From Candidatus Latescibacterota bacterium (lineage in GTDB: Bacteria > Latescibacterota > UBA2968 > UBA8231), in the NCBI GenBank assembly GCA_965221775.1, contig CBDCSU010000006.1, positions 1,223,342-1,255,341 on the forward strand: a stretch of DNA of 32,000 bases. The letters run 5' to 3'. The position numbers and the translations under genes were made by a program. Shown in pieces: positions 4,887 through 30,866 of this stretch (position 1 is its first letter; the number at the start of each line of letters is the position of its first letter). The notes below the pieces were generated by a model. The model did no database searches. It worked only from the letters and a program-made list of their open reading frames with translations, and had not been told where the DNA came from.

Positions 4887-4902
4887 GGCCCGGCGGCGAG
4901 CC

Positions 4903-7602: not shown

Positions 7603-7622
7603 GACATCCGACAAGGAGATCC

Positions 7623-10454
7623 ATGCGCACCACGAGAGTGCTGACAGCCGTCGGCCTGGCGGCGCTGATCGCCGGCCCGGCCTTCGCGCAGCAGAGCCCC
7701 CCGGGGCTGGACTGGCGGCGGATCCGGACCGAGCGGTTCAACGTCATCTTCCCCGCCCGGATCACCGCCGATGCCCAACGCGTGGCCAACACGCTCGAGC
7801 ACATCTACGGCCCGGTCTCGAAGACGCTGAAAGGTCCGGAGAAGCCGGTGGATGTGGTGCTGATGAACCAGGTGGCCGAGGCCAACGGCTTCGTCGCCAT
7901 GGCGCCCCGCCGCACCGTGTGGTTCAGCACCCCGCCCCAGGGCACGGGGCTCAGCGGCGAGTGGTACCAGTTGCTGGCCGTCCACGAGATGCGCCACGTG
8001 GTCCAGAACGACCGCCTGCGCCGGGGCTTCATCCGCCTGGCGTGGCTCCTCTCCGGAGAGTTCGGCCAGAGCGCGATGAGCCACCTGCTGGTGCCGTCGT
8101 GGTTCTGGGAGGGCGATGCCGTGGGGATCGAGACGGCCCTGAGCACGACCGGGCGCGGGCGCATGCCGCGGTTCGATCTGGACATCCGGGCCCTGCTCCT
8201 CGACGGACGGCGCTACTCCTACTACAAGGCCCTCCACCGCTCGTACCGCGACTGGTATCCCAGTCACTACCCCTTGGGGTACTTCCTGACGACCTACGTC
8301 CGGCGCCACCACGGCGCCGGGACGTGGGACCGGGTTCTGGGACGCACCGCCTGGTGGGGGTTCCACCCCTTCTCCTTCAGCCGCGCCCTGAGGAAGCACA
8401 CCGGCGCCAGCGCCGCCGGCACCTACGAGCGCGCCATGGACGAGCTGACCGGCTTGTGGCAGGCGCAGCAGGAGGGCCTGGTGACGACGCCCCTGCGGGT
8501 GCTGCCCGGTCAGAGCCAGTCGGACATCTGGACCAACTACTCGTACCCGCACCCGCTGCCGGACGGCAGTGTCCTGGCGAGCAAGGTCGGACTCGCCGAC
8601 CCGCCGACCCTGGTGAGGCTCCACCCCGACGGCCGCCAGGAGCGCCTGCGCCAGTACAGTTCCCTCGGCGGCTTTCGCGTCGGCGGCGGCATCGCCGCCT
8701 GGAACCGCCGCACCCCGGACCCGCGCTGGGGCTTCCGCAGCTACTCGGACATCATGGTCCTGGAGATCGACAGCGGCCGCGCGCGCCAGCTCACCCGCAA
8801 GGCCCGGCTCTTCGCCCCGGCTCCCTCTCCCGATGGCGCCCGCATTGCCGCCGTCGAGTTCGGGCCGGACCGGCGCTGCCACCTCGTGCTGCTGGAGACC
8901 GCCACGGGCGCCGAGCAGGCCCGGTTCCCGGCCCCCGACGGGGTTTTCTGGCGCAGACCGGCGTGGTCGGAGGACGGCCGCCATATCGCCGTGGTGCGCC
9001 AGGACGAGGCCGGCAACACCCTCGAGCGCATCGACGCCGCCGACGGCCGGGGGGAGATCGTGCTGCCCCATACCCACGACGTCATCGGCTGGCCGGTCTT
9101 CCGGGGTCCCTACCTGCTCTTCGACTCCCCCCGGTCGGGGATCGACAACATCCACGCCGTCCACCTGGCGAGCGGGGCCCGCTACCGGGTGACCTCCCGC
9201 CCCCTGGCGGCGACCCGTGCGGCCGTCGCCGGAGACTCCCTCCTGTTCCAGGAGTACACCGTCGACGGCTACCGCATCGCGGCCATGGCCCTGGACCCCG
9301 CGGCCTGGACGCCGGCCGAGCAGGTCGAGGACCGCAAGGTGCGCTACTTCGAGCCGCTCATCGACCAGGAGCACGGCGGTCCCCTGTCGATGGACATCCC
9401 GCCGCGGTCCTGGCCGGTGAGCGACTATCGGCCCCTGGCGAATCTGCTCAAAGTCCACAGCTGGTCCTTCAGTACCCTGTCGCCGCTCCACTCCCTCACC
9501 CTCATTTCCCGCGATCTCCTCGATCTCAGCAGTATGAGCGGCGGCGTCGAGTACAACAGCAACGAGAGCGCCTTCAGTGCCCTGGGCGGCCTCCGCCTGG
9601 CGGCGTGGTATCCGGTGCTCAGCGTCGGCGGCCGCTGGGGCGAGCGCGCCTCGGAGTACGAGATCGACGGGGAGAAGACCAGCGACAAGTGGACCGAGAA
9701 GAGCCTGCTGCTCGGGGCCCAACTGCCCCTGGACTTCTCCCGCGGCCCCTGGAGGTCTTTCGTCCAGATGGGCGCAGGGGTGGAGTGGACGGATATCTCC
9801 GGCCAGGCGATCGAGCTGTATCCACCCGACGCGGACGGCCTGTGGGACGGGAACGGGAACGGACGCTTCGCGCCCCTGACGTACCGGCTAACCCTCGGGC
9901 GGTTGCGCCAGCCGGCGTCTCGCGACCTGGCCCCGCTCTGGGGTCAGAGACTGCAGCTGGCCCTGCGCCACACGCCCCTGGCCGGCGACTACGACGGCAC
10001 CCTGCTGTCGGGGCGGCTGGTATTTCGCTTCCCCGGTCTGGCCGCCCACCACAGCCTGCGCCTCGACGGCGGCTACGAGTGGCAGGACCCCTCCGCGGAC
10101 GACGCCCTTCCCTACCGCTTTGCCAGCGAGCTGCCCTTCGTCCGCGGCTACGGCTACCGCTTCCACCGCCGGTTCCTGCAAGGGGGCGCCAACTATGCCC
10201 TGCCGCTGCTCTACCCCGACTGGAACCTGGGCGCGCTGGTCTACGTCAAGCGCCTCAAGGTCAACCTCTTCTACGACTACGGCCGCGGCGAGGACGACTC
10301 CCTGCCTGCCAGGGTCTACCAGTCGGCCGGCGGCGAGCTGACGGCGGACTTCCATCCCTTCTCGCTGCCGATCCCGCTGGACATGGGCGTGCGCTGCGCC
10401 TACCGCTTCGAAGAGGGAGATTCGCGCTGTGAAGCAGTGGTCAATTTGCAATAG
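7623..10454 (+). CDS. Secreted/outer-membrane multidomain protein: N-terminal HExxH zincin-like domain, PD40 (TolB-like) beta-propeller repeats, C-terminal Omp85/surface-antigen-like beta-barrel region
   Basis: AAGGAG (7613-7618) precedes ATG 7623. Signal peptide MRTTRVLTAVGLAALIAGPAFAQQ. HEMRH at 7983-7997. PD40-like APSPDGARIAAVEF and PAWSEDGRHIAVV. C-terminal alternating beta-strand-like sequence with PFVRGYGYRF and LKVNLFYDYGRG, reminiscent of Omp85 barrels. The track start at 6636 is rejected because it overlaps the upstream gene. Confidence 0.8.
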   Translation: MRTTRVLTAVGLAALIAGPAFAQQSPPGLDWRRIRTERFNVIFPARITADAQRVANTLEHIYGPVSKTLKGPEKPVDVVLMNQVAEANGFVAMAPRRTVWFSTPPQGTGLSGEWYQLLAVHEMRHVVQNDRLRRGFIRLAWLLSGEFGQSAMSHLLVPSWFWEGDAVGIETALSTTGRGRMPRFDLDIRALLLDGRRYSYYKALHRSYRDWYPSHYPLGYFLTTYVRRHHGAGTWDRVLGRTAWWGFHPFSFSRALRKHTGASAAGTYERAMDELTGLWQAQQEGLVTTPLRVLPGQSQSDIWTNYSYPHPLPDGSVLASKVGLADPPTLVRLHPDGRQERLRQYSSLGGFRVGGGIAAWNRRTPDPRWGFRSYSDIMVLEIDSGRARQLTRKARLFAPAPSPDGARIAAVEFGPDRRCHLVLLETATGAEQARFPAPDGVFWRRPAWSEDGRHIAVVRQDEAGNTLERIDAADGRGEIVLPHTHDVIGWPVFRGPYLLFDSPRSGIDNIHAVHLASGARYRVTSRPLAATRAAVAGDSLLFQEYTVDGYRIAAMALDPAAWTPAEQVEDRKVRYFEPLIDQEHGGPLSMDIPPRSWPVSDYRPLANLLKVHSWSFSTLSPLHSLTLISRDLLDLSSMSGGVEYNSNESAFSALGGLRLAAWYPVLSVGGRWGERASEYEIDGEKTSDKWTEKSLLLGAQLPLDFSRGPWRSFVQMGAGVEWTDISGQAIELYPPDADGLWDGNGNGRFAPLTYRLTLGRLRQPASRDLAPLWGQRLQLALRHTPLAGDYDGTLLSGRLVFRFPGLAAHHSLRLDGGYEWQDPSADDALPYRFASELPFVRGYGYRFHRRFLQGGANYALPLLYPDWNLGALVYVKRLKVNLFYDYGRGEDDSLPARVYQSAGGELTADFHPFSLPIPLDMGVRCAYRFEEGDSRCEAVVNLQ
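9921..9987 (+). repeat. Copy A of an imperfect direct repeat (inside the 7623-10454 CDS; encodes RDLAPLWGQRLQLALRHTPLAG)
   Basis: My hand alignment to 11609-11674 gives 7 mismatches and 3 single-nt indels over about 67 nt. Confidence 0.75.
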
Positions 10455-10469: not shown

Positions 10470-11606
10470 ATGAGACCATTCGCCTTTGTCGTGGCCATTG
10501 TCACCTTGCTCACAAGCTTCTCCGCCTGTGAGCGAGCGTCGCCAATGGCCGAGCCGGTCACAGACGAGAGCGGCGAGACTTCCATCGGCGTCGTTCTACC
10601 TCTGACTGGACGCCTGGCTGCCACGGGTCAACTCATGAAACAAGGCTTCGACCTCGCCCTCGATGAAGTCAACAGCGCACAGCTCAGTCGGAAAAAACTC
10701 AAGTTCATCATTGAAGATGATTCCAGCACCGCGGCGGGTGCGGTTGGTGCTTTCCATCAACTGATTCGCCAAGAGGGCGTCTCTGTCATTCTCGGGCCCG
10801 CGACCTCGAGCGCGACGCAGGCAGCGTTTCCGATTGCCCAGGACAATCAGGTCGTGGCCATCAGTCCCACATCGGGGGCCCGCGGTCTGAGTGCGATCGG
10901 CGATTTCGTCTTTCGCATCCCTCTCACCACAGGTGTGGTGATTCCCAAGGGCATCAAGGCGACGCAGGCGGTACTCGGCTATCAGCGGGTGGCGACGATG
11001 TATGACGAAACCGATCTGTTCTCCACGGATCGAGACGAGACCCTGCGGGAGACATTCGCTGCCAACGACATCGAGGTGCTGACGACGGAATCCTTCGAGA
11101 GCGGCGACACCGACTACTCTGCACAACTGACCCGGATCAAGGAGTTGGATCCCGATGCGATCTTCGTCTCGGCGTTGCCCCCCGAAAAGCCGGGAATCCT
11201 GATTCAAGGCCACCAACTTGGCATCACTGTTCCTTTCCTTGTCAGTTCATTGACCGACCTCGAGGTGCAAGCTGCGGGTGCCGCCGCCGAAGGCGCCATC
11301 ACTTTCATAGGGTGGCTCCCGACAGATGACGCCCCCGGAAACCAGGCCTTCGTCGAGAGTCACAGTGAGACTTTCGGCATGGAGCCGAACGCCTTCGCGG
11401 CCCTGTCGTACGCCTCTGTCCATATTCTGGCCGCGGCCATCGAGAAGGCCCCGGCAACCGATGCAATCTCCATTCGAGACGCACTCGCGGCTCTCAGAGA
11501 TCTCGACACCGTTCTGGGCAAGTTCTCCTTTGACCCCAACGGGGACGCGATCTATGAGCCGAAGGTGCTGATCGTGAAGGATGGCACACTGCAACCCTTC
11601 GAGTAG
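10470..11606 (+). CDS. ABC-transporter periplasmic substrate-binding lipoprotein, branched-chain amino acid (LivJ/Peripla_BP_6) family; orphan, with no permease or ATPase nearby
   Basis: IGVVLPLTGRLAATGQLMKQGFDLALDEVN...LKFIIEDDSSTAAGAVGAFHQLI...VSVILGPATSSATQAAFPIAQDNQVVAISPTS is the classic type I PBP/LivJ pattern. The N-terminal signal has Cys (LLTSFSAC). GC is noticeably lower than in the flanks. Confidence 0.85.
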   Translation: MRPFAFVVAIVTLLTSFSACERASPMAEPVTDESGETSIGVVLPLTGRLAATGQLMKQGFDLALDEVNSAQLSRKKLKFIIEDDSSTAAGAVGAFHQLIRQEGVSVILGPATSSATQAAFPIAQDNQVVAISPTSGARGLSAIGDFVFRIPLTTGVVIPKGIKATQAVLGYQRVATMYDETDLFSTDRDETLRETFAANDIEVLTTESFESGDTDYSAQLTRIKELDPDAIFVSALPPEKPGILIQGHQLGITVPFLVSSLTDLEVQAAGAAAEGAITFIGWLPTDDAPGNQAFVESHSETFGMEPNAFAALSYASVHILAAAIEKAPATDAISIRDALAALRDLDTVLGKFSFDPNGDAIYEPKVLIVKDGTLQPFE

Positions 11607-12654: not shown

Positions 12655-13058
12655 TTCTCCATGCGCAGGACGCCGACCCGGAACCCGTAGGCCCGGTAGA
12701 AGGCGAGGGCCTCCTCGTTGTGGGCGAGCACGTCGAGGCGGACCCGCTTGTCGGTCCAGATGCGGGCGTACATCCAGTCCATCATTGCCCTGGCGATGCC
12801 GCGCCGGCGATGGGTGCGCGCCACGAAGAGCTGGCGCAGGTAGTAGTGCTCGCCGTCGTCGCGGTAGAGGCAGTAGCCGACCGTCGTCCCCGCCTCCCGC
12901 GCGAGATAGCAGCTGTACCCCTCGCGCAGCCAGCCAGCCATGCGCTCGGCGAGCTGGGCGAGGTTCATGGGGTTGGGATGGCGCTCGTCCTCAATGAGCT
13001 GCCGGTTGAGCTCGGCCAGCTCTTCCACGTCGGCGGCGGTGGCCTTCTCGAAGGTCAT
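12651..13058 (-). CDS. GNAT family N-acetyltransferase
   Basis: 135 aa. Motif A LFVARTHRRRGIARAMMDWM (R/Q-x-x-G-x-A), followed by AHNEEALAFYRAYGF. Confidence 0.85.
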   Translation of the reverse strand: MTFEKATAADVEELAELNRQLIEDERHPNPMNLAQLAERMAGWLREGYSCYLAREAGTTVGYCLYRDDGEHYYLRQLFVARTHRRRGIARAMMDWMYARIWTDKRVRLDVLAHNEEALAFYRAYGFRVGVLRMEK

Positions 13059-13102
13059 GGCCCCAATATAGGTGCCTGCGCGAACCTTCTTACATTACTG
13101 TC
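13059..13102. promoter_or_regulatory. Short divergent intergenic region between GNAT-pip (-) and the Rieske oxygenase gene (+); presumed divergent promoters
   Basis: This is the only relatively AT-rich stretch locally (ccaatataggtgcc...cttacattactgtc). I cannot define confident -35/-10 elements. Confidence 0.3.
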
Positions 13103-14143
13103 ATGTCTTCGTATGGCGATCATGGGCTGCCGCCGTTCCCGGAGGGGTGGTATCTCCTCACGACCCGCGAGTCCCTTCTCCGGAAGGGACTGATCGAGAA
13201 GACCTTCCTCGGCCGGCAAGTCGTCGCCTGGTGCGACGACGAAGGCCGCGTCTGCGTGGCCGACTCCGTGTGTCCCCACCTTGGCTCGAGCCTCGGTCCG
13301 GACGTGGGCGGCCAGGTGTGCAACGGCCGACTCGTCTGTCCCTTCCACGGCTTCCAGTTCGATGCCACCGGCCAATGCGTCGCCACCCCCAACGCCCCGG
13401 CCCCCAAGGCCGCCAGACTGAGCGTCTACCCCACCCGGGAGATCCTCGGCCTCGTCTTCGCCTGGTTCGGCAGCGGCGGCCGGCCTCCGCCCTGGGACCT
13501 TCCCGCGGCCCCTCCCACCACCCCGGAGTGGAGCAAGCCGGGATTCCGGCACCTCCGCTTCCGGGGCCATCCCCAGGAGACGGGGGAGAACTCCGTGGAT
13601 CTTGGACACCTCCGCTACGTGCACGGCTACGACAATGTGCATCCCGTCGGTTCGGTCACGGTGGACGGCCCCTACCTCAAGAGTTGCTTCGACTTCAAGA
13701 GGGTCCGCAGGATCCTCGGGGTAAAGGACCTCGTGTACGAGGTCTCGGCCGTCACCCACATCCATGGACTCGGCTACTCCCTGGTAGAGATCCACGAGAA
13801 GACGATCGACATGCATGCGAGATTGTGGGTGCTCCCCACACCGGTGGATGGCACGCTCCTCGACCTCGTGCTCGTCAGCCAACTGCGCGAGATCCGCAAG
13901 CCCCGGCGGTTCATCACCGGCCTGGGTTTCCTGCCCGGCAAGCTGCGCCAGAAGTCGATGAACCAGATCCTCCTCTCCCAGCAGAAGCGGGACGTCATCC
14001 AGGATGTGGTGATCTGGGAAGGAAAGCGGTTTCGGACGCCGCCGCGGCTGTGCCGGGCCGACGGCCCCATCGGGACGTACCGCCGCTACTGCCGGCAGTT
14101 CTATCCGGAAGACCCGCCGTCGGTGGAAGACGCCGCCGAATAA
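13103..14143 (+). CDS. Rieske [2Fe-2S] non-heme-iron oxygenase, alpha-subunit type (KshA / SdmA / Neverland-PAO-like class)
   Basis: Rieske motif CPHLG...(17 aa)...CPFHGFQF, with the CPH codons at 13271-13279 and the CPFH codons at 13337-13348. Mononuclear iron motif ENSVDLGHLRYVH fits E/D-x3-D-x2-H-x4-H exactly. The N-terminal FPEGWYLL...GLIEKTFLGRQVVAW is typical of this class. Confidence 0.85.
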   Translation: MSSYGDHGLPPFPEGWYLLTTRESLLRKGLIEKTFLGRQVVAWCDDEGRVCVADSVCPHLGSSLGPDVGGQVCNGRLVCPFHGFQFDATGQCVATPNAPAPKAARLSVYPTREILGLVFAWFGSGGRPPPWDLPAAPPTTPEWSKPGFRHLRFRGHPQETGENSVDLGHLRYVHGYDNVHPVGSVTVDGPYLKSCFDFKRVRRILGVKDLVYEVSAVTHIHGLGYSLVEIHEKTIDMHARLWVLPTPVDGTLLDLVLVSQLREIRKPRRFITGLGFLPGKLRQKSMNQILLSQQKRDVIQDVVIWEGKRFRTPPRLCRADGPIGTYRRYCRQFYPEDPPSVEDAAE

Positions 14144-14255
14144 CCGGCCACACAGGTTCGCCTCCGGACCAGAGCGCGGGAAGCCACCGAGGGTACCATG
14201 CGGCGCATCGCCATGATGTACGGGTGGCGCTTCAGGAAGGCGGCGGACTGAACGG

Positions 14256-15329
14256 TTACGGCTTACGAGCCAGGAAACAGTACAGGGGCGTGAAGATACC
14301 CGCCTTGCCGCCCGAGACATAAGCCTCCGCGGTGCGGTCCAGGAGTCGGACCACTTCCGCGGAGCCCTTCGGAAAGCGCCGCAGTACTTCAGCCAGCTTC
14401 GATCCTGCGATGACCGCTTTGCGGCCCCACGGAAGCCTGCGCAAGGCCTTCCCCAACGTCCCGTGGCGGCTCTCCATGGGCTGATACCAGGGTATGGAGG
14501 GGCCTTCCTGGACGTCCAGGTCCATCCCTTCCATGACCTGGAATCCCGCGGCTTCGAGGGCGTGATTCACTTCCCCGAAGGTGGCTATGTGCTTCAGCGC
14601 AATGCCGCGCATGAGATCCCGCTTGATGGCCCGGTGCCGGTCGTCCTTCGGATTGAACTGGTCTGTCAGACACATCTCCTGACCCCAGAACAGGGCCCCG
14701 GGTTTCAGCACGCGGAATACCTCCTCGAAGGCACGTTGCTTGTCCGGCGCGTGGCACGTCGACTCGATGGCATAACCCCGATCGAAGGTGCCGTCCTCAA
14801 TGGCCCTCATGTCCATGAAGCTGCACGTCTCGAAATCGACCATGTGATCGAGCCCCGCCTCGGCGATCGACCCTCTCGCCTTTTCCAACTGCACCTCGCT
14901 GATGTTGATCCCCACGACCCTGACACCAGCCTCCCGGACGACGCGGAGCATGGGGGCGCCGACTCCACAACCAACGTCGACCACCGTCATACCCTTTTGC
15001 AGCTCCAACTTGGAGATCATCATCCGCTGATGCCGGACCTTGGATTCCTCCAGACTCTCATCAGGTGTGAGGGGCGCGAAGTGCAGGGATTCGCCCCAGC
15101 CCCATACCATGAACCCGCTGCAAAGGTCGTAATAGTCCTTCACTGTTTCAGTGTGTTCGTAGCCGCCTGCGCCACCGGGCTGCGGCGCCGCCCGGTCGAG
15201 CCAGCCGTCGAAGTGCTGCACTCGACGCGCGACGCCCGATCCCCGGTACGCATCTCTCAGATCTCTCGACAGCTTGCCCAGCCGCACCCGGTCTTTCTCC
15301 CTGGCTCCAGGAACGAGCCATGTCGTCAA
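14256..15329 (-). CDS. Sterol C-24 methyltransferase family protein (ERG6/SMT-type SAM-dependent methyltransferase with Sterol_MT_C-like tail)
   Basis: YYDLCSGFMVWGWGESLHFAP, the SAM motif VVDVGCGVGAP, YAIESTCHAPD, and the C-terminal GGKAGIFTPLYCFLARKP. These match my memory of yeast Erg6: YYNVVTDFYEYGWGSSFHF, LDVGCGVGGP, YAIEATCHAP, GGKSKLFTPMMLFVARKP. The track start is TTG 15329, 3 nt after the upstream stop; an in-frame GTG about 40 nt downstream is an alternative. Confidence 0.9.
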   Translation of the reverse strand: MTTWLVPGAREKDRVRLGKLSRDLRDAYRGSGVARRVQHFDGWLDRAAPQPGGAGGYEHTETVKDYYDLCSGFMVWGWGESLHFAPLTPDESLEESKVRHQRMMISKLELQKGMTVVDVGCGVGAPMLRVVREAGVRVVGINISEVQLEKARGSIAEAGLDHMVDFETCSFMDMRAIEDGTFDRGYAIESTCHAPDKQRAFEEVFRVLKPGALFWGQEMCLTDQFNPKDDRHRAIKRDLMRGIALKHIATFGEVNHALEAAGFQVMEGMDLDVQEGPSIPWYQPMESRHGTLGKALRRLPWGRKAVIAGSKLAEVLRRFPKGSAEVVRLLDRTAEAYVSGGKAGIFTPLYCFLARKP

Positions 15330-15332
15330 TCG

Positions 15333-17360
15333 TCAGGCGGACAGCTCCCGTCTCTGCTCGGCGATGCGGAACTTCAGCTTCTTGCTCGGTTTGAGCGACG
15401 GAAAGGGACTGAAACGGAGCTTGTACTTCGCTGGCGACACCTCGATCGTGAAGTAGTGCGCCAGCATCAGCAAGTTGGCCGCCAGGTGCAGCTCCATCCA
15501 CCGGGTGCCCAGACACTTGTGCGTACCCAGCCCGTACGGGGCGTACCCGGGGCTGCGATGCTCATGGCGCGGGGCCAGGTAGCGGTCGATGTCGAACTTC
15601 CAGGGATCCGGAAAGACCTCGCTCATGTAATGCGTGGCGGTCATGGCGATGTGGACCCGTTCGCCCACGCGCAGCTCGTAGTCCTCGACCACGCACGCAT
15701 TCATCACGTTCCGCATGGACATGGAGACGATGGGGTACATGCGCAGGCACTCCATGAGGAAGCGGTGCGTCACGTCGATCCTGTCGGGGGTGAAGTCCTC
15801 TCTCTCGGGGTCGCCCTTGGCGAACAGGGCATCCGCTTCGGTCTGGATTCTGGCGTAGAGGTCGGGCTGGGACGCCATGGCGTAGACTACGAGGCTGAAC
15901 GTATCGCCGAGGTAAACGCTGGCAATCAAGGCCGCGGAAAAGGCGAAGAGCAGGTTGGACTCCGGGAGAAACTGCGGGTCGCTGGCGTGCAGGCTGAGGT
16001 AATCGTCCACGAGGTCCCGCGGGAGGTCCGCCCGTTGGGCGGGGGTATGGATGCCCTGGATCCGCTGCATCAGGGTGTCCAGGGCTTTCGCCCGGCGTCT
16101 CATGCCCGGGGTGTTCAGCATGAATCGGGGCAGGAGCTTGGCGATGTGCACGCTGAGGGCCCGTTCCTTGTAGGCCATCAGGTCGTCCATGAGGTCCTGG
16201 GTGTCGACGCTGAGGAACAGGGGCGAGAGCTGGGCGTTCACCATCCCCCGGCACATGGACGTGGCGCGGTAGGAGTCCCCAACCGTCAAGCTCGCCATGT
16301 ACTTGCGCCCCTGATTGTAGAGCTGGTCCAGCTGCTCTCCCAGCCTCGCGCCGGAAAAGGCCGGGGACAAGGACTTGCGAAGCCGGAAGTGATCGGCGCC
16401 GTCCAGGGCGGGCAGGACGCCGGCCGCGCCGTAGACCTTCTCGAAGTCGCTGAAGTAGTCCCTGCATCTCAGGTACATGCGCCCGCGCTTGTGCACCCAG
16501 CGGTTTGTCTCGAGTCCGGCCAGGAAGATCATGGGCTCCGAGAAGGGAGGGCGGATCTGGAACACCGGACCGTACTCCTCCGCAAGGCTCCCGAAGAGCG
16601 CGTTCAGGTTGCCGTCTCGAACATGCGGGTTCATCATCAGCTTGGGCAGCGAAACCGCCGGGATCTTCCTGGTAAGGGGGGGACGTTGAAGGGCCGGGCC
16701 GGTGAGGTTCTGAGAGACCGCAGCGGCCAGGGAGCGGCCGATCAGGTCCATCTTGCAGATGAACTCGATGCGCTCTTCCGCCTCGTCGTCAAGTTCGAAT
16801 ATGAAGCGAAAGACGTCGCACGTATTGATGAGGCAGATAATGATGACATCTCTCGGATCGGGAATCTTGTCGGTGAAGATGACCCTGCTGATACGCGTCT
16901 TTATGAACTGGCCCGCAGTGCCCTCCTCCGACCTGCCGTACAGTTTCCCATGCCAAACAGTAGGAGCCAGCGTCCAGAAATCGCCGTCGTGGTATTCCAG
17001 GATCTTCAGGTCAACCAGGCGATCCAGAACCGAATCGATGATCGACTCCGCACGGGGAGCGAGCCGTTCAATCCAGTACTGGGCGTTCCGTTGAACAGAT
17101 TCGGCTGCAATTTCTTTCAGAATGGGGTCCAGGGCAGGGTTGCCTGTTTCCGACGCGTCCACGAGGAACAGGGATTCCATGTCCGTGTCGATGCGAGATC
17201 TGAGTGAAAGCTCCGCGAGCACGGCACCGACCAGGGCACAGTTCAGATGCCAGCCGGGTACCTGATGAAAGTAGCCGGTCTCCTCGTTGAGGAGCATCAG
17301 GATGAGCTCTTGAGTCAGAGTCAGCGGTTGGGGCGTCAAACCCTCCGTAGTGTCAGTCAT
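15333..17360 (-). CDS. Fusion protein: N-terminal GPP34/GOLPH3-like domain plus C-terminal cytochrome P450
   Basis: N-terminus LTLTQELILMLLNEETGYF...LNCALVGAVLAELSLRSRI...GNPALDPILKEI...PDPRDVIIICLINTC follows the bacterial GPP34 pattern. C-terminus has ExxR (ECLR), PDPWKFDIDRY, and the heme loop PYGLGTHKCLG with the Cys codon at 15513-15515. The ATG start shares a base with the RND stop (TGATG at 17358-17362). Confidence 0.85.
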   Translation of the reverse strand: MTDTTEGLTPQPLTLTQELILMLLNEETGYFHQVPGWHLNCALVGAVLAELSLRSRIDTDMESLFLVDASETGNPALDPILKEIAAESVQRNAQYWIERLAPRAESIIDSVLDRLVDLKILEYHDGDFWTLAPTVWHGKLYGRSEEGTAGQFIKTRISRVIFTDKIPDPRDVIIICLINTCDVFRFIFELDDEAEERIEFICKMDLIGRSLAAAVSQNLTGPALQRPPLTRKIPAVSLPKLMMNPHVRDGNLNALFGSLAEEYGPVFQIRPPFSEPMIFLAGLETNRWVHKRGRMYLRCRDYFSDFEKVYGAAGVLPALDGADHFRLRKSLSPAFSGARLGEQLDQLYNQGRKYMASLTVGDSYRATSMCRGMVNAQLSPLFLSVDTQDLMDDLMAYKERALSVHIAKLLPRFMLNTPGMRRRAKALDTLMQRIQGIHTPAQRADLPRDLVDDYLSLHASDPQFLPESNLLFAFSAALIASVYLGDTFSLVVYAMASQPDLYARIQTEADALFAKGDPEREDFTPDRIDVTHRFLMECLRMYPIVSMSMRNVMNACVVEDYELRVGERVHIAMTATHYMSEVFPDPWKFDIDRYLAPRHEHRSPGYAPYGLGTHKCLGTRWMELHLAANLLMLAHYFTIEVSPAKYKLRFSPFPSLKPSKKLKFRIAEQRRELSA
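15336..16655 (-). other. Cytochrome P450 domain (about residues 236-675 of the fusion)
   Basis: LPALDGADHFRLRK, I-helix-like AALIASVYLGDTFS, ExxR, and the heme-thiolate loop GLGTHKCLG. The CYP family is not assignable by eye. Confidence 0.8.
16716..17324 (-). other. GPP34/GOLPH3-like domain (about residues 13-215 of the fusion)
   Basis: See the parent CDS. The boundaries are my visual estimate. Four 60-nt samples taken between 16741 and 17100 hand-count at 47-58% GC, against 63% for a P450-domain sample. Confidence 0.7.
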
Positions 17361-20300
17361 CAGCCTTCACTCCCTGCGTCTGCACCGGGGACGCGCCGGG
17401 AGCCGGAAGGGCCGCTCGAGGCCGTCAGACGCGAGTGGATGGTGGAAAGAGCGGGAACGACCATCATCAGTACGGCGGTGACAATGAGAATGCCGCAACC
17501 GAGGGATGCGGCAAAGGGGATCAGGAACTGGGCCTGAATGGCGCGTTCCAGAATGAGGGGCGTGAAGCCGAGGAAGGTGGTCACGGAAGTGAGCATGATC
17601 GGACGAAAGCGGCCCTTGGCGCCCTCGATGATCGCTGTTCGCGCCGGGGCCCCGTCCCTGAGTTTCTGATCGATGAAATCGATCATGACCAGGGAATCGT
17701 TCACGACAACCCCGCTCAGGCCGAAGATACCCATGAAGGATACCGCGCTCAAGGCCACTCCCAGGACCCAGTGGCCCAGGATCACCCCGATGAACCCGAA
17801 GGGGATGACGGCCATGATGATGAGGGGCTTGGTATAGGAGCGAAGTGGAATGGCGAGGAGCGCGAAGATCATGATCAGGGCGATGGCGAACCCCCGGTAC
17901 AGGGCATCCAGGGACTCGAGTTGCTGTTGCTGCTCCCCTCCGAAGCTGTATGTCAGGTCAGGGTGCACGGCGGTCAGGCCCGGGAGGATCGAATTGGCCA
18001 GGATGTCGTTGGCTTCGTCACCGGAAATCACCGAAGCATCGACGTCCGCCGTGACCGTGACGACGCGCTGGCCGTCCTTCCGTCGGATGGCCGGCGGCGA
18101 CACGCCCGGGCTCAGGGAGGCCACACTCATGACCGGGACCTCGGCCCCGCCCGGGGTGCGGACCAGGTACCCTTCGACATCGGTGATGGAGTCACGCTCA
18201 TGGGCGGGGAGGCGCACGTAGACCCGGACCTCTTCCCGGCCGCGCTGCACCCGAACCGCCTCTGCGCCGAAGAACGCGGCGCGCGCCTGCCCGGCCAGCT
18301 CCTGGAGCGTGAGACCGAGGGTGCGCGCTTCCGGCCGGAGCTCCAGTTGCACCTCCGGGATGCCCGGCGTGTGATCCGAACGTATGTCGTAGACGCCTCC
18401 CACACTTCGGAGGCCTTCGACCACCGAGTCCGCGATCTCGGCGAGAAGCTCCGGGTCCGGATGCGACAGCACGGCCTCCACGGCGTTGCCCAAGGTGAAG
18501 ACCTCGGCGCTGAAGGTGATGCCGCGCACATGGGGCAGGACTCCCACCTCCTCCCGCCACGCCTGCACGACCTCTCCGGTGGAGATCTGTCTCTGCTGCG
18601 CGCCCAGGAGCTTGAACTCGATGGTGGCGATATTGGCTTGGGGATTGAGTGTGGGCTCCGGGTTGAGCCCGCCCTCGAGTCTCGACCCCTGTCCGACGGT
18701 CACCGTCACACCGGTCAGCAGCGGTGGCGCGTCCCCGGGCCGGCCGAGGGAGAGTCGTTCGATGACCCGGTGGCCTGCGGCCTCCAGTTCCCGCGCCACT
18801 TCGTACGTCCTCGGAGCGGTCGCCCCATCGGGCATCTCCAGGACGACCGTCGCGATATCCCCCTCCACCTCAGCGGCCAGCGTGGTAGGAACGATGCCCG
18901 CGGGCAACAGGGAGATGCTCAGCACGAGCATTCCCACGGCCCCCGCCATCGTCACCCCGGGCTGGTCCGTGGCGAACCTCAGGGCCCGGTCCAGAGGCCC
19001 TTGCAGGAACCTGTTCAGCAGCGCGTTCACGCGCCCCTGGAGCCGCGCGAAGAACCGGTCGAAGGCATTGGCCGGCTCCCACTCCGGGCCGTGCAAATGG
19101 GACAGGTGGTTGGGCAGCACCAGCAGCGATTCGACCAGGGAAACCAGCAGCATGGCGATGATGATGATCGGCAGGGCCCGCCAGACGTCACCGACGCCTC
19201 CCGGGATGAACAGCAAGGGGACGAAGGCCACCACCGAAGTGAGGACGGCGAAGGTCAAGGGCACCTTGATCCGCCGTACGCCTCGGATCGCGGCCGCGAC
19301 CCCGGGGGTCCCCCGCTTGCGTTCCGATTGAATGTGCTCGGCCACGACGATGGCATCGTCGACGATGATGCCGATGGCGAGGACGAAGGAGAACAGGCTG
19401 ATGGTGTTGATCGCCACGTCGAGTGCCATCATGATGGCGAGGGCGCCCATACCAGAAACGGCGAGGCCCACGGCGACCCAGAGGGCGAGCCGGATTTCGA
19501 GAAACAGGCTGAGTGCGATCAGCACCAGCACCAGCCCCAGGAGCCCGTTCTTGAGGAGGAGATCGGCGCGTTCCTCGTAGACTTGGGATTCGTCATTCCA
19601 CATGGTGACGCCCACACCGTCCGGCAGGGCCGGGATCACCTCGTCCGCCAGGTGCTCGCGGACGGTCCTGGCCACGTCCATCACCTGCTCGCCATCGGCC
19701 CGGTAGACCTCGACGAAGACGGCGGGGTGGTTCTGATGCCGCACGATCAGGTCCGCTTCCTGGAAACCGTCGCGGACCTCGGCGATATCTCCAAGGCGCA
19801 GGACCGTGCCGTCACGGCCGCTGAGGAGGACGACCTCCTCGAAGTCCTTCTGGTCGTAGTTCTGGCCGAGGGTGCGGACCCTCACCTGGGATTCCCGGGT
19901 ATCGATGCTGCCGGCGGACAGGTCCAGGGAACTCCGGCGAATCGTGTCGGCGATGTCGGTGAGCGTGAGTCCGAGGGCCCGCAGGCGGTGGAGGGGCACC
20001 TCGATGGAGATCTCGTAGCTCCGGACACCGCTGACCTCGACCTGGGAGACGGAGGGGAGCGTCGTGAGGTCGTCCTCGATCTGGTACGCCAGTTCCTTCA
20101 GCGCGCGCTCGGAGACGTCGCCGTGGACGATGAGCCGCATCATGCTCAGGCGGTTGTCCATCTCCCGGAACAGGGGACGTTCGGCGCCGGCCGGGAAGGA
20201 CTGTATTCGATTGACCGCGGACTCGATATCGTCCAAGGCCCGGGCCATGTCCGTATCGAAAGCCATTTGAACCCGCACCGAGGCCATACCCGGGGCGGCT

Positions 20301-20581
20301 ACGGACTTGACCGCCTTCACGTCATCCAGCCCGCTGACCTGGTCCTCGATCCTGACGACGATCGACTCCTCGATCTCCTCCGGTGTGGCGCCGGGATAGG
20401 CCATCGAGACTTCGATATGGTAGAATGGGGTCGTGGGCCAGGCTTCCCGCTCGATACCGGTCAGCGCCACCACCCCGGCGGCGACGATGGCCCACATCAA
20501 CAGGTTGGCGGCCACACCGTTGCCGGCCATGTAGGCGATCGGGCCGGGCCGTTCCTCGTGATTGCCGTTGCCGGGACTCAT
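17360..20581 (-). CDS. RND efflux transporter permease subunit (AcrB/HAE-type, 12-TM, about 1073 aa)
   Basis: Length and layout fit: an N-terminal TM, then the large periplasmic loop PGATPEEIEESIVVRIEDQVSGLDDVK, two TM bundles with GIIVDDAIVV and VVVNDSLVMIDF motifs. The start shares ATGA with the adaptor stop (20578-20581). Confidence 0.92.
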   Translation of the reverse strand: MSPGNGNHEERPGPIAYMAGNGVAANLLMWAIVAAGVVALTGIEREAWPTTPFYHIEVSMAYPGATPEEIEESIVVRIEDQVSGLDDVKAVKSVAAPGMASVRVQMAFDTDMARALDDIESAVNRIQSFPAGAERPLFREMDNRLSMMRLIVHGDVSERALKELAYQIEDDLTTLPSVSQVEVSGVRSYEISIEVPLHRLRALGLTLTDIADTIRRSSLDLSAGSIDTRESQVRVRTLGQNYDQKDFEEVVLLSGRDGTVLRLGDIAEVRDGFQEADLIVRHQNHPAVFVEVYRADGEQVMDVARTVREHLADEVIPALPDGVGVTMWNDESQVYEERADLLLKNGLLGLVLVLIALSLFLEIRLALWVAVGLAVSGMGALAIMMALDVAINTISLFSFVLAIGIIVDDAIVVAEHIQSERKRGTPGVAAAIRGVRRIKVPLTFAVLTSVVAFVPLLFIPGGVGDVWRALPIIIIAMLLVSLVESLLVLPNHLSHLHGPEWEPANAFDRFFARLQGRVNALLNRFLQGPLDRALRFATDQPGVTMAGAVGMLVLSISLLPAGIVPTTLAAEVEGDIATVVLEMPDGATAPRTYEVARELEAAGHRVIERLSLGRPGDAPPLLTGVTVTVGQGSRLEGGLNPEPTLNPQANIATIEFKLLGAQQRQISTGEVVQAWREEVGVLPHVRGITFSAEVFTLGNAVEAVLSHPDPELLAEIADSVVEGLRSVGGVYDIRSDHTPGIPEVQLELRPEARTLGLTLQELAGQARAAFFGAEAVRVQRGREEVRVYVRLPAHERDSITDVEGYLVRTPGGAEVPVMSVASLSPGVSPPAIRRKDGQRVVTVTADVDASVISGDEANDILANSILPGLTAVHPDLTYSFGGEQQQQLESLDALYRGFAIALIMIFALLAIPLRSYTKPLIIMAVIPFGFIGVILGHWVLGVALSAVSFMGIFGLSGVVVNDSLVMIDFIDQKLRDGAPARTAIIEGAKGRFRPIMLTSVTTFLGFTPLILERAIQAQFLIPFAASLGCGILIVTAVLMMVVPALSTIHSRLTASSGPSGSRRVPGADAGSEG

Positions 20582-21756
20582 GGCGCGGGGTCGGCCTCCG
20601 TGAGGACGCGCATGCCCTCGGTGGCGAACCGGATTCCGCCGGTGACTACCGTGCCGCCGCCTTCCAGGCCGCCGGTGACGAATACCCGGTCGTCGGCGCG
20701 CTGAAGCACGCGCACCGGAACGATGCTCACCACCCCGTCCTTCACCGTCCAGACCTCGTCGCCCGGCTGGAGGGCTGCTCTCGGCACCTTGAAGTAATCA
20801 TCCGGCGCCAGGCCCTCGATCTCCACCTCCACGAAGGCACCCACGAGCAACGGATGCACGCCCGCCGGGAACGGGTCCGTCACGCGCACGATCACGTCGA
20901 TGGTGCGCGTTCGCGCGTCGAGGGCCGCCTCGCCCCGATCGACGTAGCCCTCCCAGGCATGACTCCCGCCGCGCGACGGGGCGACCACCCGGGCCGCCAC
21001 CCGCCGGTCCCCATCCCCCGGCGCGAGTTCCCACAGCCCCGGGATCAGGGCCGCGTCGGCATCGGAGACGGGCACCACCACCTCCACCGCATCCGCGGCG
21101 AAGAGGCGCCCCACGCTCTGTCCGGGCGCGAGAATCTGTCCCACGTCGACGGACTCGTCGCGCACGAAGCCGTCGAAGGGCGCGGTCACCCGTGTCCTGG
21201 AAAGGGAGAGCTCCGCGTCGGCCAGCCGTGCCTGGTCGCGCTCGAGGGCGGCACGGGCCGCCTCCAGTTGCGGCTCCCTCAGGGTGAGGGGACTGGCGGC
21301 CGGCGCCGAAGATGCACTCCCCTGCCGCTCGGAGTAGAGCCGGTACTGGTCGCGGGCGATGGCGGCCCGTTCCTCTTCCTCGAGCAGGGCCACGCGGCGG
21401 GCGGCGAGATTGGCCTCGGCTTCCTGCACCCGGTGGAGGTAGTCCGCCTCTTCGATGCGGAACAGCGCCTGGCCCGCCTTCACCCGGCCCCCGCTCTGGA
21501 ATCCCGGGTCCACCCACACGACTCGCCCGCCCACCTGCGGCGCCACGTCGATCTCCGCGCTCGGCCTCACGGTGCCGGCCCCGTACACGGGTATGGCGCC
21601 GGACCCGGCCGTTACCCGGCCCGTCTGGGCGAAGGGGATCTGCGGCGGCGGCTCGGTGCGGGCCGGCTCGGGGGCCATGGAGACCAGGAGGGCCGCCAGG
21701 CCCACGGCAACGACGAGGATGGCGGCGGCGGCGACGAGGCTGCGGATGCGGGACAT
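20578..21756 (-). CDS. RND efflux periplasmic adaptor (membrane fusion protein, HlyD/AcrA family)
   Basis: The start is moved to ATG 21756 (MSRIRSLVAAAAILVVAVGLAALLV, a membrane anchor). Also present: barrel-sandwich and coiled-coil regions (EADYLHRVQEAEANLAARR...QLEAARAALERDQARLADAELSLSRTRVTAPFDGFV). The track start at 21891 would overlap the OMF gene. Confidence 0.85.
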   Translation of the reverse strand: MSRIRSLVAAAAILVVAVGLAALLVSMAPEPARTEPPPQIPFAQTGRVTAGSGAIPVYGAGTVRPSAEIDVAPQVGGRVVWVDPGFQSGGRVKAGQALFRIEEADYLHRVQEAEANLAARRVALLEEEERAAIARDQYRLYSERQGSASSAPAASPLTLREPQLEAARAALERDQARLADAELSLSRTRVTAPFDGFVRDESVDVGQILAPGQSVGRLFAADAVEVVVPVSDADAALIPGLWELAPGDGDRRVAARVVAPSRGGSHAWEGYVDRGEAALDARTRTIDVIVRVTDPFPAGVHPLLVGAFVEVEIEGLAPDDYFKVPRAALQPGDEVWTVKDGVVSIVPVRVLQRADDRVFVTGGLEGGGTVVTGGIRFATEGMRVLTEADPAP

Positions 21757-21763
21757 GGGCGAC

Positions 21764-23308
21764 TTACTCCGTGGAGGTCGGCGGCGGGGTAGCGGCAGCC
21801 GCGCTGCTCTGCCGGATGGCTTCCCGGTTGTCGGCGGTCCACGCGCCGCCCAGCGCGCGGTGCAGCGCGAGGCGGGCGTAGCCGAGGTCACGTTCGGCGG
21901 CCGCCTGCGCGGCCTGCGCGCCGAGGAGAGTCTGCGATGCGGCCAGGAAAGCCTCGTACCCGCCGACCCCGGAGAGGTACCGCCGCTCCTGCAACCCCGC
22001 TTCGGCCCCGGCCTCCTCTGCCAGCGAGACCAGCAGCGAGTGGCGGCGGCGGCTGGCCTCCAGACCGGCGAGAGCGGCCTCGACCTCGTTGACCGCGGTC
22101 ACCACGGCCCGCCCGTAGGCGGCGGCCGCCTCATCCAGCCGGGCCTCGGCGAGAGCGACATTGCCGCGAAGGCGTGAACCCTGGAAAACCGGGCCGAGCA
22201 GGTTCAGGCTGAGATTCCGGAACCACTGATCCGGGTCGAACCACTCGTCCGCCTCGGTGCTCTGCACTCCGATGGAGCCGTGCAGGGACAGTCGCGGCAG
22301 CAGGTCCGCGCGGCGGGCGCCGACGGTGTACCGGGCCGCTTCCGCCCGCTGCCTGGCGGCGCCGACGTCGGGCCGCTGCGCCAGGAGGCCGGCGGGAATG
22401 CCGGCCGGGACCGGCTCCAGCGCCGCGGCAGGGGTCAGCGGGCCGGGCAGCCTGTCCGCGAGGTCGGCGCGGTAACCTCCCAGGAGCACCCACAGCCGCC
22501 CCTCCGCATCGGCCAGCAGGGCCTCGATCTGCGGCAGCCCGGCCTGCGTGTTGCGCAGATGGCGCCGCGCCGCATGGAGGCCGCCCGCATCGCTCAGGCC
22601 GCGGCCATAGCGGGACTCGGCAAGGGACTCCTGGTGCCGCAGGATCTCCACGATCTCGCCGGTCAGCCTCCGCTGCCGGCGCAGGTTGGCGATCTCGAGG
22701 TAGGTCCGCACGGTCTCGGCCAGCACCCCCATGCGGGCTGTGAGGTAGTCGGACTCCGAGGCCAGCCGCGCGGCCCCGGCGGCGAGGGCGTCGTTTCGGT
22801 TCCGGCCCCAGAAGTCGAGCTCGTAGGCGACTTCCGCGGCGGCGGTATAGGTGGTCAGTCCGAGACGGTCGGGGAGAACGAGTCCGGATGCACCCAGACC
22901 GGACTCCAGGCCCAGTTCGTCGAATTGGGCGCCGATGCCCGCATTGGTGGGTGTGTCGGAGTCGCTGACGCCGACCGAGGGCTGAAGGAGCGGAAAGACC
23001 GGGGCCCTGGCGATGCGGGCCCGGGCCCTGGCCTGATCGACCCGGGCCACCGCCGCGGCCAGGTCGAAGTTCGAGGCGAGCACCTCCGCGATCACCCGGT
23101 CGAGCATCGGGTCGGAAAAGCTCTTCCACCACTCCCGCGGCTCGTAGGGACCGGCCGCTTCCCCGCCGGCGAACCCGGCCGGCAGCTCCTCCACCGACTC
23201 GAGGACCGGGGGGGTCTGCTTCGGTGCAAGGGAGCAGGCGGAGATGAGACAGCCGACGATGGCCGGCCTCAGCAATCCGGAAACCTGGTTCCTCCCATAG
23301 CAGGCCAT
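21764..23308 (-). CDS. RND efflux outer-membrane factor lipoprotein (NodT/TolC family)
   Basis: Lipobox GCLISAC. WWKSFSDPMLDRVIAEVLASNFDLAAAVARVDQARA and the repeated alpha-helical/beta-barrel halves are typical of NodT-family OMFs. Stop TAA at 21764-21766. Confidence 0.88.
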   Translation of the reverse strand: MACYGRNQVSGLLRPAIVGCLISACSLAPKQTPPVLESVEELPAGFAGGEAAGPYEPREWWKSFSDPMLDRVIAEVLASNFDLAAAVARVDQARARARIARAPVFPLLQPSVGVSDSDTPTNAGIGAQFDELGLESGLGASGLVLPDRLGLTTYTAAAEVAYELDFWGRNRNDALAAGAARLASESDYLTARMGVLAETVRTYLEIANLRRQRRLTGEIVEILRHQESLAESRYGRGLSDAGGLHAARRHLRNTQAGLPQIEALLADAEGRLWVLLGGYRADLADRLPGPLTPAAALEPVPAGIPAGLLAQRPDVGAARQRAEAARYTVGARRADLLPRLSLHGSIGVQSTEADEWFDPDQWFRNLSLNLLGPVFQGSRLRGNVALAEARLDEAAAAYGRAVVTAVNEVEAALAGLEASRRRHSLLVSLAEEAGAEAGLQERRYLSGVGGYEAFLAASQTLLGAQAAQAAAERDLGYARLALHRALGGAWTADNREAIRQSSAAAATPPPTSTE

Positions 23309-30077: not shown

Positions 30078-30078
30078 G

Positions 30079-30864: not shown

Positions 30865-30866
30865 CC

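Follow-up and report, generated by a model that had tools for sequence, protein, structure and literature searches.

A gene in which a GPP34 domain, the fold of the eukaryotic proteins GOLPH3 and Vps74, is joined to a cytochrome P450 lies in a 32,000-nucleotide stretch of DNA from a Candidatus Latescibacterota bacterium (assembly GCA_965221775.1, contig CBDCSU010000006.1, positions 1,223,342 to 1,255,341), referred to here as the window. The fusion belongs to a published class, and across many phyla it recurs in a module with a sterol C-24 methyltransferase-like gene (SMT), a Rieske oxygenase gene and a transporter. The parts of the gene, in window positions, are as follows.

15333-17360, minus strand: GPP34–cytochrome P450 fusion gene; ATG start, uninterrupted, 675 amino acids (aa), GPP34_L member
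16713-17318, minus strand: GPP34 (GOLPH3/Vps74-fold) domain, residues 15-216, Pfam PF05719; acidic, basic phosphatidylinositol-4-phosphate (PI4P) ligands absent
16647-16712, minus strand: Pro-rich linker/hinge, residues 217-238, QNLTGPALQRPPLTRKIPAVSL; leads into the P450 N-terminal Pro motif
15375-16646, minus strand: cytochrome P450 domain, residues 239-662, Pfam PF00067

The open reading frame (ORF) is intact and repeatedly recovered, and both domains are bona fide, so that the single-gene fusion proposed in the initial annotation was confirmed. The GC content of its three codon positions (0.61/0.41/0.83) is that of real genes of the window, which has 68% GC overall. The PF05719 match has an E-value of 4.7e-29 (102 bits against a cut-off, the gathering score, of 29.1; profile positions 1-199 of 201) and the PF00067 match one of 1e-31 (111 bits against 22.8; profile positions 8-458 of 462). 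The identical 675-aa protein was called on five contigs from at least three independent samples, with ENA metagenome contig names that include NGUY21 and PANK22, and orthologues are present in 218 species genomes. The best 120 database clusters are 73-100% identical to the fusion protein and all carry PF05719 and PF00067; the named sources among these are Gemmatimonadota or Candidatus Palauibacter. The names given to metagenome-assembled genomes (MAGs) with homologues (Aplysina, Ircinia, Rhopaloeides, Porites; APA_bin, SB06xx_bin, RHO_bin, Plut) point to sponge and coral symbionts.

A sequencing error that joined adjacent GPP34 and P450 genes would also give such an ORF, and some assemblies do contain separate, overlapping genes: in a minority of long-read assemblies the fusion gene is split by a frameshift, as at locus L081 (6001-8033), where two overlapping calls, GPP34 of 296 aa and p450 of 383 aa, lie in the same operon. 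In addition, many proteins of 230-400 aa consist of GPP34 only, with 60-90% identity to the N-terminal domain. However, overlap of the split versions is typical of a single frameshift in long-read contigs, and the split at L081 is almost certainly one, while the intact fusion is found in all 218 species and in hundreds of protein clusters, and some 45 divergent subfamilies have the same length and layout. The artefact explanation is effectively refuted, and we give it practically no weight. Split copies make up most of these 'GPP34-only' entries and could inflate published counts of short GPP34 proteins.

The AlphaFold2 (AF2) model of the full-length protein has a mean confidence (pLDDT) of 89 and a predicted TM-score (pTM) of 0.86, with low-confidence zones only at residues 1-10, 136-147 and the linker residues 222-226 (pLDDT <50 at 222-226). 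The pTM suggests that the inter-domain arrangement in the modelled protein is fixed. The linker is the least conserved of the three segments (50-82% identity among orthologues), and it leads into the P450 N-terminal Pro motif, for which the family consensus is IPxVxGxPLLGN, with an invariant P234.

The architecture is already known, and the window gene is an ordinary member of its class. It had been taken for an unusual, uncharacterized fusion; in fact the same architecture was published in 2025 as 'GPP34_L', from sponge symbionts of many phyla (Ferreira et al., Microbiome 2025, PMC11706023), with the combination of GPP34 and P450 accounting for 656 of 663 long GPP34 proteins. In that study GPP34_L was confined to sponge symbionts. 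Of the 16 phyla with GPP34 it was present in most, and among the Gemmatimonadota and Latescibacterota symbiont genomes that the authors analysed it occurred in 92.6%. The family was reported from sponge and coral symbionts only and as absent from free-living relatives, and P450 genes were reported near short GPP34 genes (PMC11706023). The authors proposed that GPP34 proteins are secreted effectors that bind host PI4P and block phagosome maturation (PMC11706023). The ligand residues of GPP34 and the flanks of the long form lay outside the scope of their analysis, which covered flanking genes for the short form only, and sterols, SMTs or other methyltransferases, and RND or other efflux systems are not mentioned in the paper (PMC11706023). 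In the literature that we searched, no paper links GPP34 with both sterols and sponges in a relevant sense.

The restriction to symbionts of sponges and corals speaks for the secreted-effector proposal, as does homology of the domain to the PI4P-binding protein GOLPH3; the genes are moreover reported as expressed. The homology itself is clear. A profile of 20 diverse N-terminal domains matched human GOLPH3 (E 6e-15) and yeast Vps74 (E 3e-11) in the PDB, and the AF2 model of the domain (pLDDT 88) matches only GOLPH3/Vps74 there (TM-scores 0.71/0.67, E 4.5e-9). The GOLPH3 fold, a helical bundle with a projecting β-hairpin (strands 121-124 and 128-131), is thus confirmed. The hairpin is followed by a flexible aromatic/basic loop, TVWHGKLYGR here and VSRSRRYP in most paralogues.

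The ligand residues are a different matter. Those of GOLPH3, which we take to be W81, R90, R171 and R174, were located in a profile alignment to the full-length protein (9qpq_A), which keeps the native numbering and has W81 and R90 at the expected indices. They align with P35, V44, E105 and I108 of the fusion. Conservation was followed through the 80 best orthologous loci (of the 218 species with an orthologue; fusion identity 68-92%), and in all 80 the four positions are P, V/I/A, E/D and I/V, as they are in the family consensus; a conserved Trp, W37, stands two residues after the position aligned with W81. The net charge of the domain is about -17 (mean over 60 fusions, -14), whereas the mean for the P450 domains is +7. 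A basic cluster and an Arg-rich coatomer-binding tail are both absent from the N-terminus, MTDTTEGLTPQP, and bacteria are not known to have a Golgi or COPI. No signal peptide or N-terminal hydrophobic anchor was found in the fusion protein. A transmembrane or signal segment within the N-terminal domain was considered and rejected, since its only hydrophobic 19-mer (172-190) is a charged, high-confidence core helix. Lost ligands, negative charge and the lack of an export signal all count against a secreted PI4P effector, and so does the fusion of GPP34 to a heme enzyme that needs cytoplasmic redox partners.

The same residues bear on a second proposal, made in the initial annotation, that the domain is a phosphoinositide-type tether, specific for a lipid headgroup, that anchors the soluble P450 or delivers a lipid substrate to it. 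Eukaryotic microsomal P450s have a transmembrane anchor at the position before the Pro hinge, and the GPP34 domain of the fusion ends just before the invariant P234 of the P450 Pro motif, at that very position. The GOLPH3 hairpin is implicated in membrane insertion, and the β-hairpin with its aromatic/basic loop resembles it. The domain is also strongly conserved, as well as the P450 (75% against 73.5%). The phosphoinositide pocket is nevertheless not conserved and the overall charge is strongly negative, while other GPP34 architectures described below, a tandem GPP34 protein and a GPP34–Rieske-ferredoxin fusion, fit a protein scaffold at least as well. A headgroup-specific tether therefore seems to us quite improbable, and the tether as first proposed was not upheld; a role of GPP34 in membrane targeting or substrate delivery more generally is possible. 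GPP34 was also considered as a redox partner and rejected, as it has no conserved Cys/His and no cofactor motif. The evidence is against both a PI4P sensor and a redox partner and fits a non-catalytic positioning or scaffold module: the domain takes the place of an anchor before the Pro hinge, it has lost the PI4P pocket, and it is conserved like the catalytic domain.

The P450 was found to be complete, as had been read from its ExxR and GLGTHKCLG motifs. Across 60 diverse fusions and the 80 orthologues, E537 and R540 of the ExxR motif, G610 and the heme ligand C616 are invariant, and the heme loop reads G610-L-G-T-H614-K-C616-L-G. The best PDB matches by sequence are bacterial CYP51s (E 1e-16), over domain residues 197-416 only, the C-terminal half. 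The top sequence matches of the P450 are CYP51, CYP102 and CYP120; they are not CYP125-like. The top Foldseek match is the Methylococcus capsulatus CYP51 6mcw (20% identity, E 7e-16, TMt 0.82). Membership of CYP51 was rejected, as the match is partial, with ~20% identity, and the I-helix signature AG(Q/H)H(T/S)S is absent. In P450 space it stands on the side of CYP51, as a new CYP family, and its CYP51-like heme loop (H at C-2, K/R at C-1) is in keeping with a sterol enzyme, though it is not a CYP51.

The I-helix of this P450 is out of the ordinary. The segment A480-S-V-(gap)-Y483-L-G-D486 is invariant in 80/80 orthologues, with mostly Ala at position 487, and the canonical acid-alcohol pair (A/G)Gx(D/E)T, which serves O2 activation in typical monooxygenases, is missing from the orthogroup. 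Most paralogous subfamilies keep AG(L/I)(D/E)T. With no acid/Thr pair in its A-S-V-Y-L-G-D helix, the enzyme may carry out a non-standard reaction, for instance a desaturation, C-C chemistry or O2 activation assisted by the substrate.

A difference in GC content between the two parts of the gene had been taken as a hint of a composite origin. The lower GC of the N-terminal domain is real (57.3%, with 0.71 at third codon positions (GC3), against 63.8% and GC3 0.89 for the P450 part); codon positions 1 and 2 are equal in the two parts. The dip at position 3 is seen only in the closest relatives (L001, L007), and the difference between the domains averages 1.6 points across the 82 fusion gene copies in the loci that were retrieved. 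The two-domain layout is common to every paralogous subfamily, down to 24% identity. A composite origin was rejected on these grounds, since the fusion predates all paralogous subfamilies and the two domains are equally conserved. The GC dip is thus uninformative on how the fusion arose and reflects at most local recombination or amelioration in a horizontally acquired cassette. In some clades the identities of the N-terminal domain and of the P450 are discordant, which is compatible with mosaicism.

The fusion is the fourth gene in a packed minus-strand operon of outer-membrane factor, adaptor, RND transporter, fusion and SMT, beyond which lies a Rieske oxygenase gene on the other strand.

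21764-23308, minus strand: outer-membrane efflux factor (NodT/TolC family); TIGR01845 outer_NodT E 1.5e-78 (above cut-off), Pfam OEP
20578-21891, minus strand: RND periplasmic adaptor (membrane-fusion protein); TIGR01730 RND_mfp E 4e-52 (above cut-off), HlyD_3
17360-20581, minus strand: RND inner-membrane transporter, 1073 aa; ACR_tran E 1e-156
14256-15329, minus strand: SMT; Sterol_MT_C E 4e-14, Methyltransf_11 E 1.6e-17, CMAS
13103-14143, plus strand: KshA-like Rieske non-heme oxygenase; Rieske E 3e-15 and KshA_C E 1e-21; divergent from the SMT end

A full tripartite RND set (permease, adaptor and outer-membrane factor) is thus contained in one operon with overlapping gene ends: the adaptor gene and the start of the RND gene share 4 nt, the RND stop codon and the fusion start codon share 1 nt (TGATG), and at the next junction the SMT reading frame opens 3 nt past the fusion stop. 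The true SMT start is likely near 15287 (343 aa), as in gene calls on identical contigs. By its domain content the SMT is a sterol methyltransferase, with that activity predicted; its Sterol_MT_C and Methyltransf_11 matches are above the cut-offs, and it has a WGWGESLHF motif at the place of the Erg6 segment YEYGWGSSFHF, which we take to be sterol-binding region I. The best PDB match of the Rieske gene product is the 3-ketosteroid 9α-hydroxylase KshA (E 2.7e-23), over the N-terminal half only. It was also considered as an SdmA orthologue, which was rejected (32 bits against a model cut-off of 600).

The RND, fusion, SMT and Rieske genes have 61-66% GC and the flanking genes 70-73%. The operon genes at 17360-23308 form a mosaic: RND, fusion, SMT and Rieske share 78-93% identity with the corresponding genes of the closest relatives (L001-L011), while the adaptor and outer-membrane factor have 73% GC, like the host genome, and are only 59-77% identical to the L001-L011 counterparts. 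The gap between SMT and Rieske in the window (14144-14255) is only 112 bp, and it lacks the FAD amine-oxidase-like gene of about 460 aa that stands between the two in a syntenic relative (L031:13106-14476). A scan of 12900-23800 for promoters and terminators gave signals no more than expected by chance, and a search for a tRNA or integration site found none.

The adjacent SMT had been regarded as a meaningful link, and the orthologous loci showed that it is not a coincidence. The 80 loci come from about nine phyla-level groups, namely Latescibacterota, Gemmatimonadota, Opitutales, Nitrospirales, Binatia, Thermodesulfobacteriota, Dehalococcoidia/SAR202, Alpha-/Gammaproteobacteria and Rhodothermaceae, and many of them are on complete chromosomes. 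Neighbours within 10 kb of the orthologue were counted by tblastn of the window neighbours and by an independent all-against-all clustering of ORFs, with the following result.

SMT: 57-60 of 80 loci, median gap 41 bp
KshA-like Rieske: 60-61 of 80 loci
SMT and/or Rieske: 72 of 80 loci
RND permease: 43 of 80 loci, median gap 0 bp
MMPL-type transporter (827 aa): 26 of 80 loci
RND or MMPL: 69 of 80 loci
FAD amine-oxidase-like gene: 32 of 80 loci

An orthologous RND gene is immediately upstream of the fusion in 35 loci, and RND identity across phyla is 74-93%. In only 3 of the 80 loci are all four main neighbours missing, and one of these loci is a 2.9-kb contig. The other window genes are not conserved near orthologues, save in the syntenic L031. 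In 26 loci within L039-L076, mostly of Dehalococcoidia (e.g. L063:13144-15627), the tripartite RND is replaced by the 827-aa MMPL-family transporter, which also matches the Sterol-sensing and Patched SSD models. The identity of 68-92% across phyla implies horizontal spread of the fusion. The order and orientation of the module genes vary between phyla, and a constant content with a variable order is what marks a functional module. This module consists of SMT, fusion, Rieske and an RND or MMPL/sterol-sensing-type transporter, sometimes with the FAD amine-oxidase-like gene, and recurs in many phyla. The lipid and sterol intuition of the initial annotation is in this respect partly supported: the SMT link is real and general. 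Translational coupling within a transport and sterol-methylation operon, in a context conserved across phyla, is again not what a secreted effector would lead one to expect, and with the evidence from the GPP34 domain it makes the phagosome proposal very improbable.

An exhaustive search of 1.84 billion representative sequences returned about 45 clusters of full-length fusions (640-720 aa) at 24-58% identity, so the fusion is old and diversified. The gene contexts of eight paralogues were read, seven of them on contigs long enough to judge.

P0134 (34% identity; L085): two tandem fusions, then SMT, hydrolase, SdmB, SdmA, ERG4_ERG24 and another P450
P0258 (24% identity; L089): ERG4_ERG24 (E 8e-40) directly downstream, SMT 9 kb away
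P0125 (40% identity; L084): RND set and KshA-like Rieske
P0138 (38% identity; L093): sulfotransferase and acyltransferase
P0170 (30% identity; L095): EcKL-type kinase
P0183 (28% identity; L088): no sterol gene
P0149 (33% identity; L094): no sterol gene
P0161 (31% identity; L087): short contig

The SdmB and SdmA matches in L085 have E-values of 5e-90 and 8e-124, and the locus is a genuine sterol cluster such as those described from sponge symbionts. In L093 (10345-12439) the paralogous fusion is followed by the sulfotransferase and acyltransferase and in L095 (4045-5205) by the EcKL-type kinase, and PhyH-family dioxygenases recur near the paralogues in L088, L093 and L094; sulfotransferase, kinase and PhyH contexts would suit a hydroxylation and a subsequent conjugation. 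As two of these paralogues are from TARA samples, the fusion family may not be strictly confined to sponges.

GPP34 occurs in other combinations as well: a tandem GPP34–GPP34 protein (P0195, 444 aa), a GPP34–GPP34–P450 protein (P0136, 872 aa) and a GPP34 domain fused to a small Rieske ferredoxin-like domain (P0374, 318 aa). These forms suggest that GPP34 serves as an accessory domain that is modular and may associate with itself. In two loci (L082:7660-9556 and L083:7660-9549) a genuine short GPP34, of 216 aa and with 40% identity to the N-terminal domain of the fusion, stands between a STAS-domain gene and a family-25 glycosyltransferase gene.

Taken together, the fusion protein is probably, though by no means securely, a cytoplasmic sterol-tailoring P450 with a GPP34 positioning or scaffold domain, encoded in a mobile SMT–Rieske–exporter module of sponge symbionts. 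The P450 would oxidize a sterol, probably one alkylated by the neighbouring SMT, and the product would leave by the RND pump, so that the module would tailor sterols and hand them to an envelope exporter. The GPP34 domain would be non-catalytic and would position the P450 at the membrane or at the transporter, or scaffold it with partner proteins; contacts might be made through the β-hairpin and the basic-aromatic loop, possibly with GPP34–GPP34 association. We infer in this way the substrate, the reaction, the redox partners, the localization and the role of GPP34.

The KshA-like Rieske allows the module to be read in the opposite direction, as one that degrades or inactivates host or dietary sterols by a CYP125-like and KshA-like logic, with the pump expelling toxic intermediates. 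CYP125 and CYP142 P450s initiate sterol side-chain degradation in bacteria, the closest solved relative of the Rieske, KshA, is a hydroxylase of steroid ring opening, genes for a MaoC-type hydratase or a CoA-transferase are found near the paralogues in L088 and L089, and there are no genes of de novo sterol synthesis in the window. On the other hand, the tightest partner of the fusion, with a median gap of 41 bp, is the SMT, an alkylating and anabolic enzyme, and paralogues stand beside the biosynthetic SdmA, SdmB and ERG24 genes. Genes for KstD, KshB, Hsa, FadD or thiolase do not recur in the 80 loci, and the P450, with its best matches to CYP51, CYP102 and CYP120, is not of the CYP125 type. 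We consider catabolism or detoxification unlikely.

Several points weigh against a sterol-tailoring enzyme. The sterol assignment rests on gene neighbourhood, and the P450 is only about 20% identical to any solved P450. By fold the fatty-acid enzymes BM3 and CYP184A1 score nearly as well as CYP51, and likewise CYP3A4. The closest NCBIfam models for the window RND are HAE-type multidrug pumps and not HpnN/BstA. Among the genes of the 32-kb window there is no oxidosqualene cyclase (OSC), CYP51, SdmA/B or ERG24, and no ferredoxin or reductase partner near the fusion. Three of the seven judgeable paralogue contexts (L088, L093, L094) have no sterol-related gene, and that of L095 has only a generic kinase. 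As to positioning, the acidic GPP34 argues against simple electrostatic binding to anionic bacterial membranes.

The near-equal fold scores, the multidrug-type pump and the paralogues that adjoin sulfotransferase, kinase or PhyH genes in place of sterol genes would all suit a substrate of another kind, such as a hopanoid or other triterpenoid, a fatty acid, a polyketide, a sponge secondary metabolite or a xenobiotic, with the 'SMT' methylating the same compound and the RND serving general efflux. Yet the methyltransferase has the Sterol_MT_C domain, and sponge-symbiont proteins with that domain methylate sterols: activity in vitro was shown on desmosterol and 24-methylenecholesterol (Brown et al. 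2023, PMC10070321). The pump is replaced in Chloroflexota by the MMPL protein that matches Sterol-sensing and Patched SSD models, and the SdmA, SdmB and ERG4/24 proteins encoded beside paralogues belong to sterol-specific families. A non-sterol substrate is therefore improbable in our estimation, and sterol tailoring is the reading that we retain.

A broader version of the sterol-tailoring reading can be put forward only tentatively, and it is rather doubtful as a whole. The fusions could be the missing tailoring oxygenases of a horizontally shared, near-universal system for sterol modification and export in sponge symbionts (SMT, fusion, Rieske, RND/MMPL), with GPP34 as an ancient scaffold or membrane-positioning module, not a phosphoinositide sensor, and with the modified sterols delivered to the host. 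GPP34 would then serve bacterial lipid oxygenases as GOLPH3 serves the enzymes of the Golgi, and might bring P450s, short GPP34 proteins and Rieske-type electron carriers together at the membrane beside the exporter. The symbiont-modified sterols would add to the unconventional sponge sterols that are used as animal biomarkers.

As the fusion itself is published, what matters here is its genomic context: an SMT, a steroid-type Rieske and an RND/MMPL exporter in about nine phyla, and paralogues in true sterol clusters. If the P450 does act on sterols, what has been reported as the most specific trait of sponge symbionts would be a matter of sterol chemistry, not of phagosome evasion, and bacterial sterol metabolism would include a new CYP family, one with a non-canonical I-helix. 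The 24-isopropyl and 26-methyl steranes are used as the oldest animal biomarkers, and the debate on who makes the unusual sponge sterols would gain a concrete, expressible set of enzymes. The bacterial GPP34 would also hint that the ancestral function of GOLPH3/Vps74 was that of an enzyme-positioning adaptor.

The remaining features of the window are these.

1040-3082, plus strand: 680-aa protein with a C-terminal Redoxin/AhpC-TSA domain, in a lower-GC patch (62%)
4675-10454, plus strand, and 23417-26275, minus strand: three large ORFs (about 900-950 aa), with no Pfam/NCBIfam match save one C-terminal FlgD_ig domain
10470-11606, plus strand: Peripla_BP_6 periplasmic binding protein, in a 59.5%-GC patch
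26170-29166, plus strand: UvrD-type helicase with a helicase-IV N-domain and C-terminal topoisomerase-type zinc ribbons
29343-31615, plus strand, after the helicase: two DUF1538 membrane proteins and a CBS-domain protein

Three tandem Redoxin-type proteins of 570 aa are encoded just upstream of paralogous fusions in L085 (1-5478) and L086 (40-3749); the Redoxin/AhpC-TSA protein may be a recurrent partner or a coincidence. The 952-aa large ORF is conserved only in L031. The helicase, DUF1538 and CBS genes appear unrelated to the fusion.

Set beside known systems, the window gene has the identical architecture to GPP34_L (N-terminal PF05719, then PF00067), with matching size (about 650-690 aa) and phyla. 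There is no structural difference; only the functional reading differs, a sterol context here against a secreted PI4P effector there. With GOLPH3/Vps74 the domain shares the fold (TM-score 0.71 to 9qpq_B and 3kn1), the PTGDxLLD motif, the helix-5 Trp and the β-hairpin. Unlike them, it does not conserve the PI4P ligands, is acidic, has no Arg-rich tail, is covalently joined to an enzyme, and is bacterial and cytoplasmic. The short GPP34 beside a glycosyltransferase in L082 and L083 recalls eukaryotic GOLPH3, whose clients are glycosyltransferases.

As in microsomal P450s, an extra N-terminal module precedes the conserved Pro motif, and as in fusions such as P450 BM3 the P450 and an accessory domain form a single polypeptide. 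Here, however, the module is a soluble helical domain of 200 residues, not the transmembrane helix of microsomal P450s, and differs from the BM3 case in not being a redox partner. The heme loop G-x-H-(K/R)-C-(L/I/V)-G and the FPDPxxFDxDRY region are shared with bacterial CYP51 (6mcw; Mycobacterium CYP51B1), but the I-helix AG(H/Q)HTS of those enzymes is replaced by A-S-V-Y-L-G, the identity is only about 20%, and the sequence match is confined to the C-terminal half. The M. capsulatus CYP51–ferredoxin is likewise a bacterial sterol-pathway P450 fused to an extra domain, although in our case the partner is N-terminal and is not a redox domain.

At the level of gene clusters, a study of 537 Ircinia symbiont MAGs reported ERG24–CYP51–OSC clusters in 115 that span ten phyla, several of which are also represented here, with purifying selection and horizontal gene transfer (Kelly et al. 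2022, PMC9531527). Host phyla, SMT family, evidence of horizontal transfer and purifying selection are common to the window module and such sponge-symbiont sterol clusters (PMC9531527; PMC10070321), and in L085 a paralogous pair of fusions sits inside one. The main texts of both papers leave GPP34 unmentioned; PMC10070321 does not mention P450 or Rieske neighbours either, and its supplements also lack the terms GPP34, P450 and Rieske. Unlike those clusters, the window module has no OSC, CYP51, ERG24 or SdmAB, and has instead the SMT, the GPP34–P450 fusion, the KshA-like Rieske and an efflux system.

For the efflux system the nearest parallel is BstA, an RND-superfamily sterol transporter encoded with sdmAB in Methylococcus (Zhai et al., eLife 2024, PMC10942540), in a paper that likewise leaves GPP34 unmentioned. 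No conserved counterpart of BstB or BstC accompanies the fusion; the Peripla_BP_6 gene was considered as a BstB-like sterol carrier and rejected, being near only 2 of the 80 loci and 29% identical. The window pump also differs from BstABC/HpnN in being a tripartite, AcrB-like HAE-type system with adaptor and outer-membrane factor. It resembles BstABC/HpnN (PMC10942540) in that an RND-superfamily pump is co-operonic with sterol-modifying enzymes, and in the Chloroflexota modules that pump is of the MMPL/SSD type.

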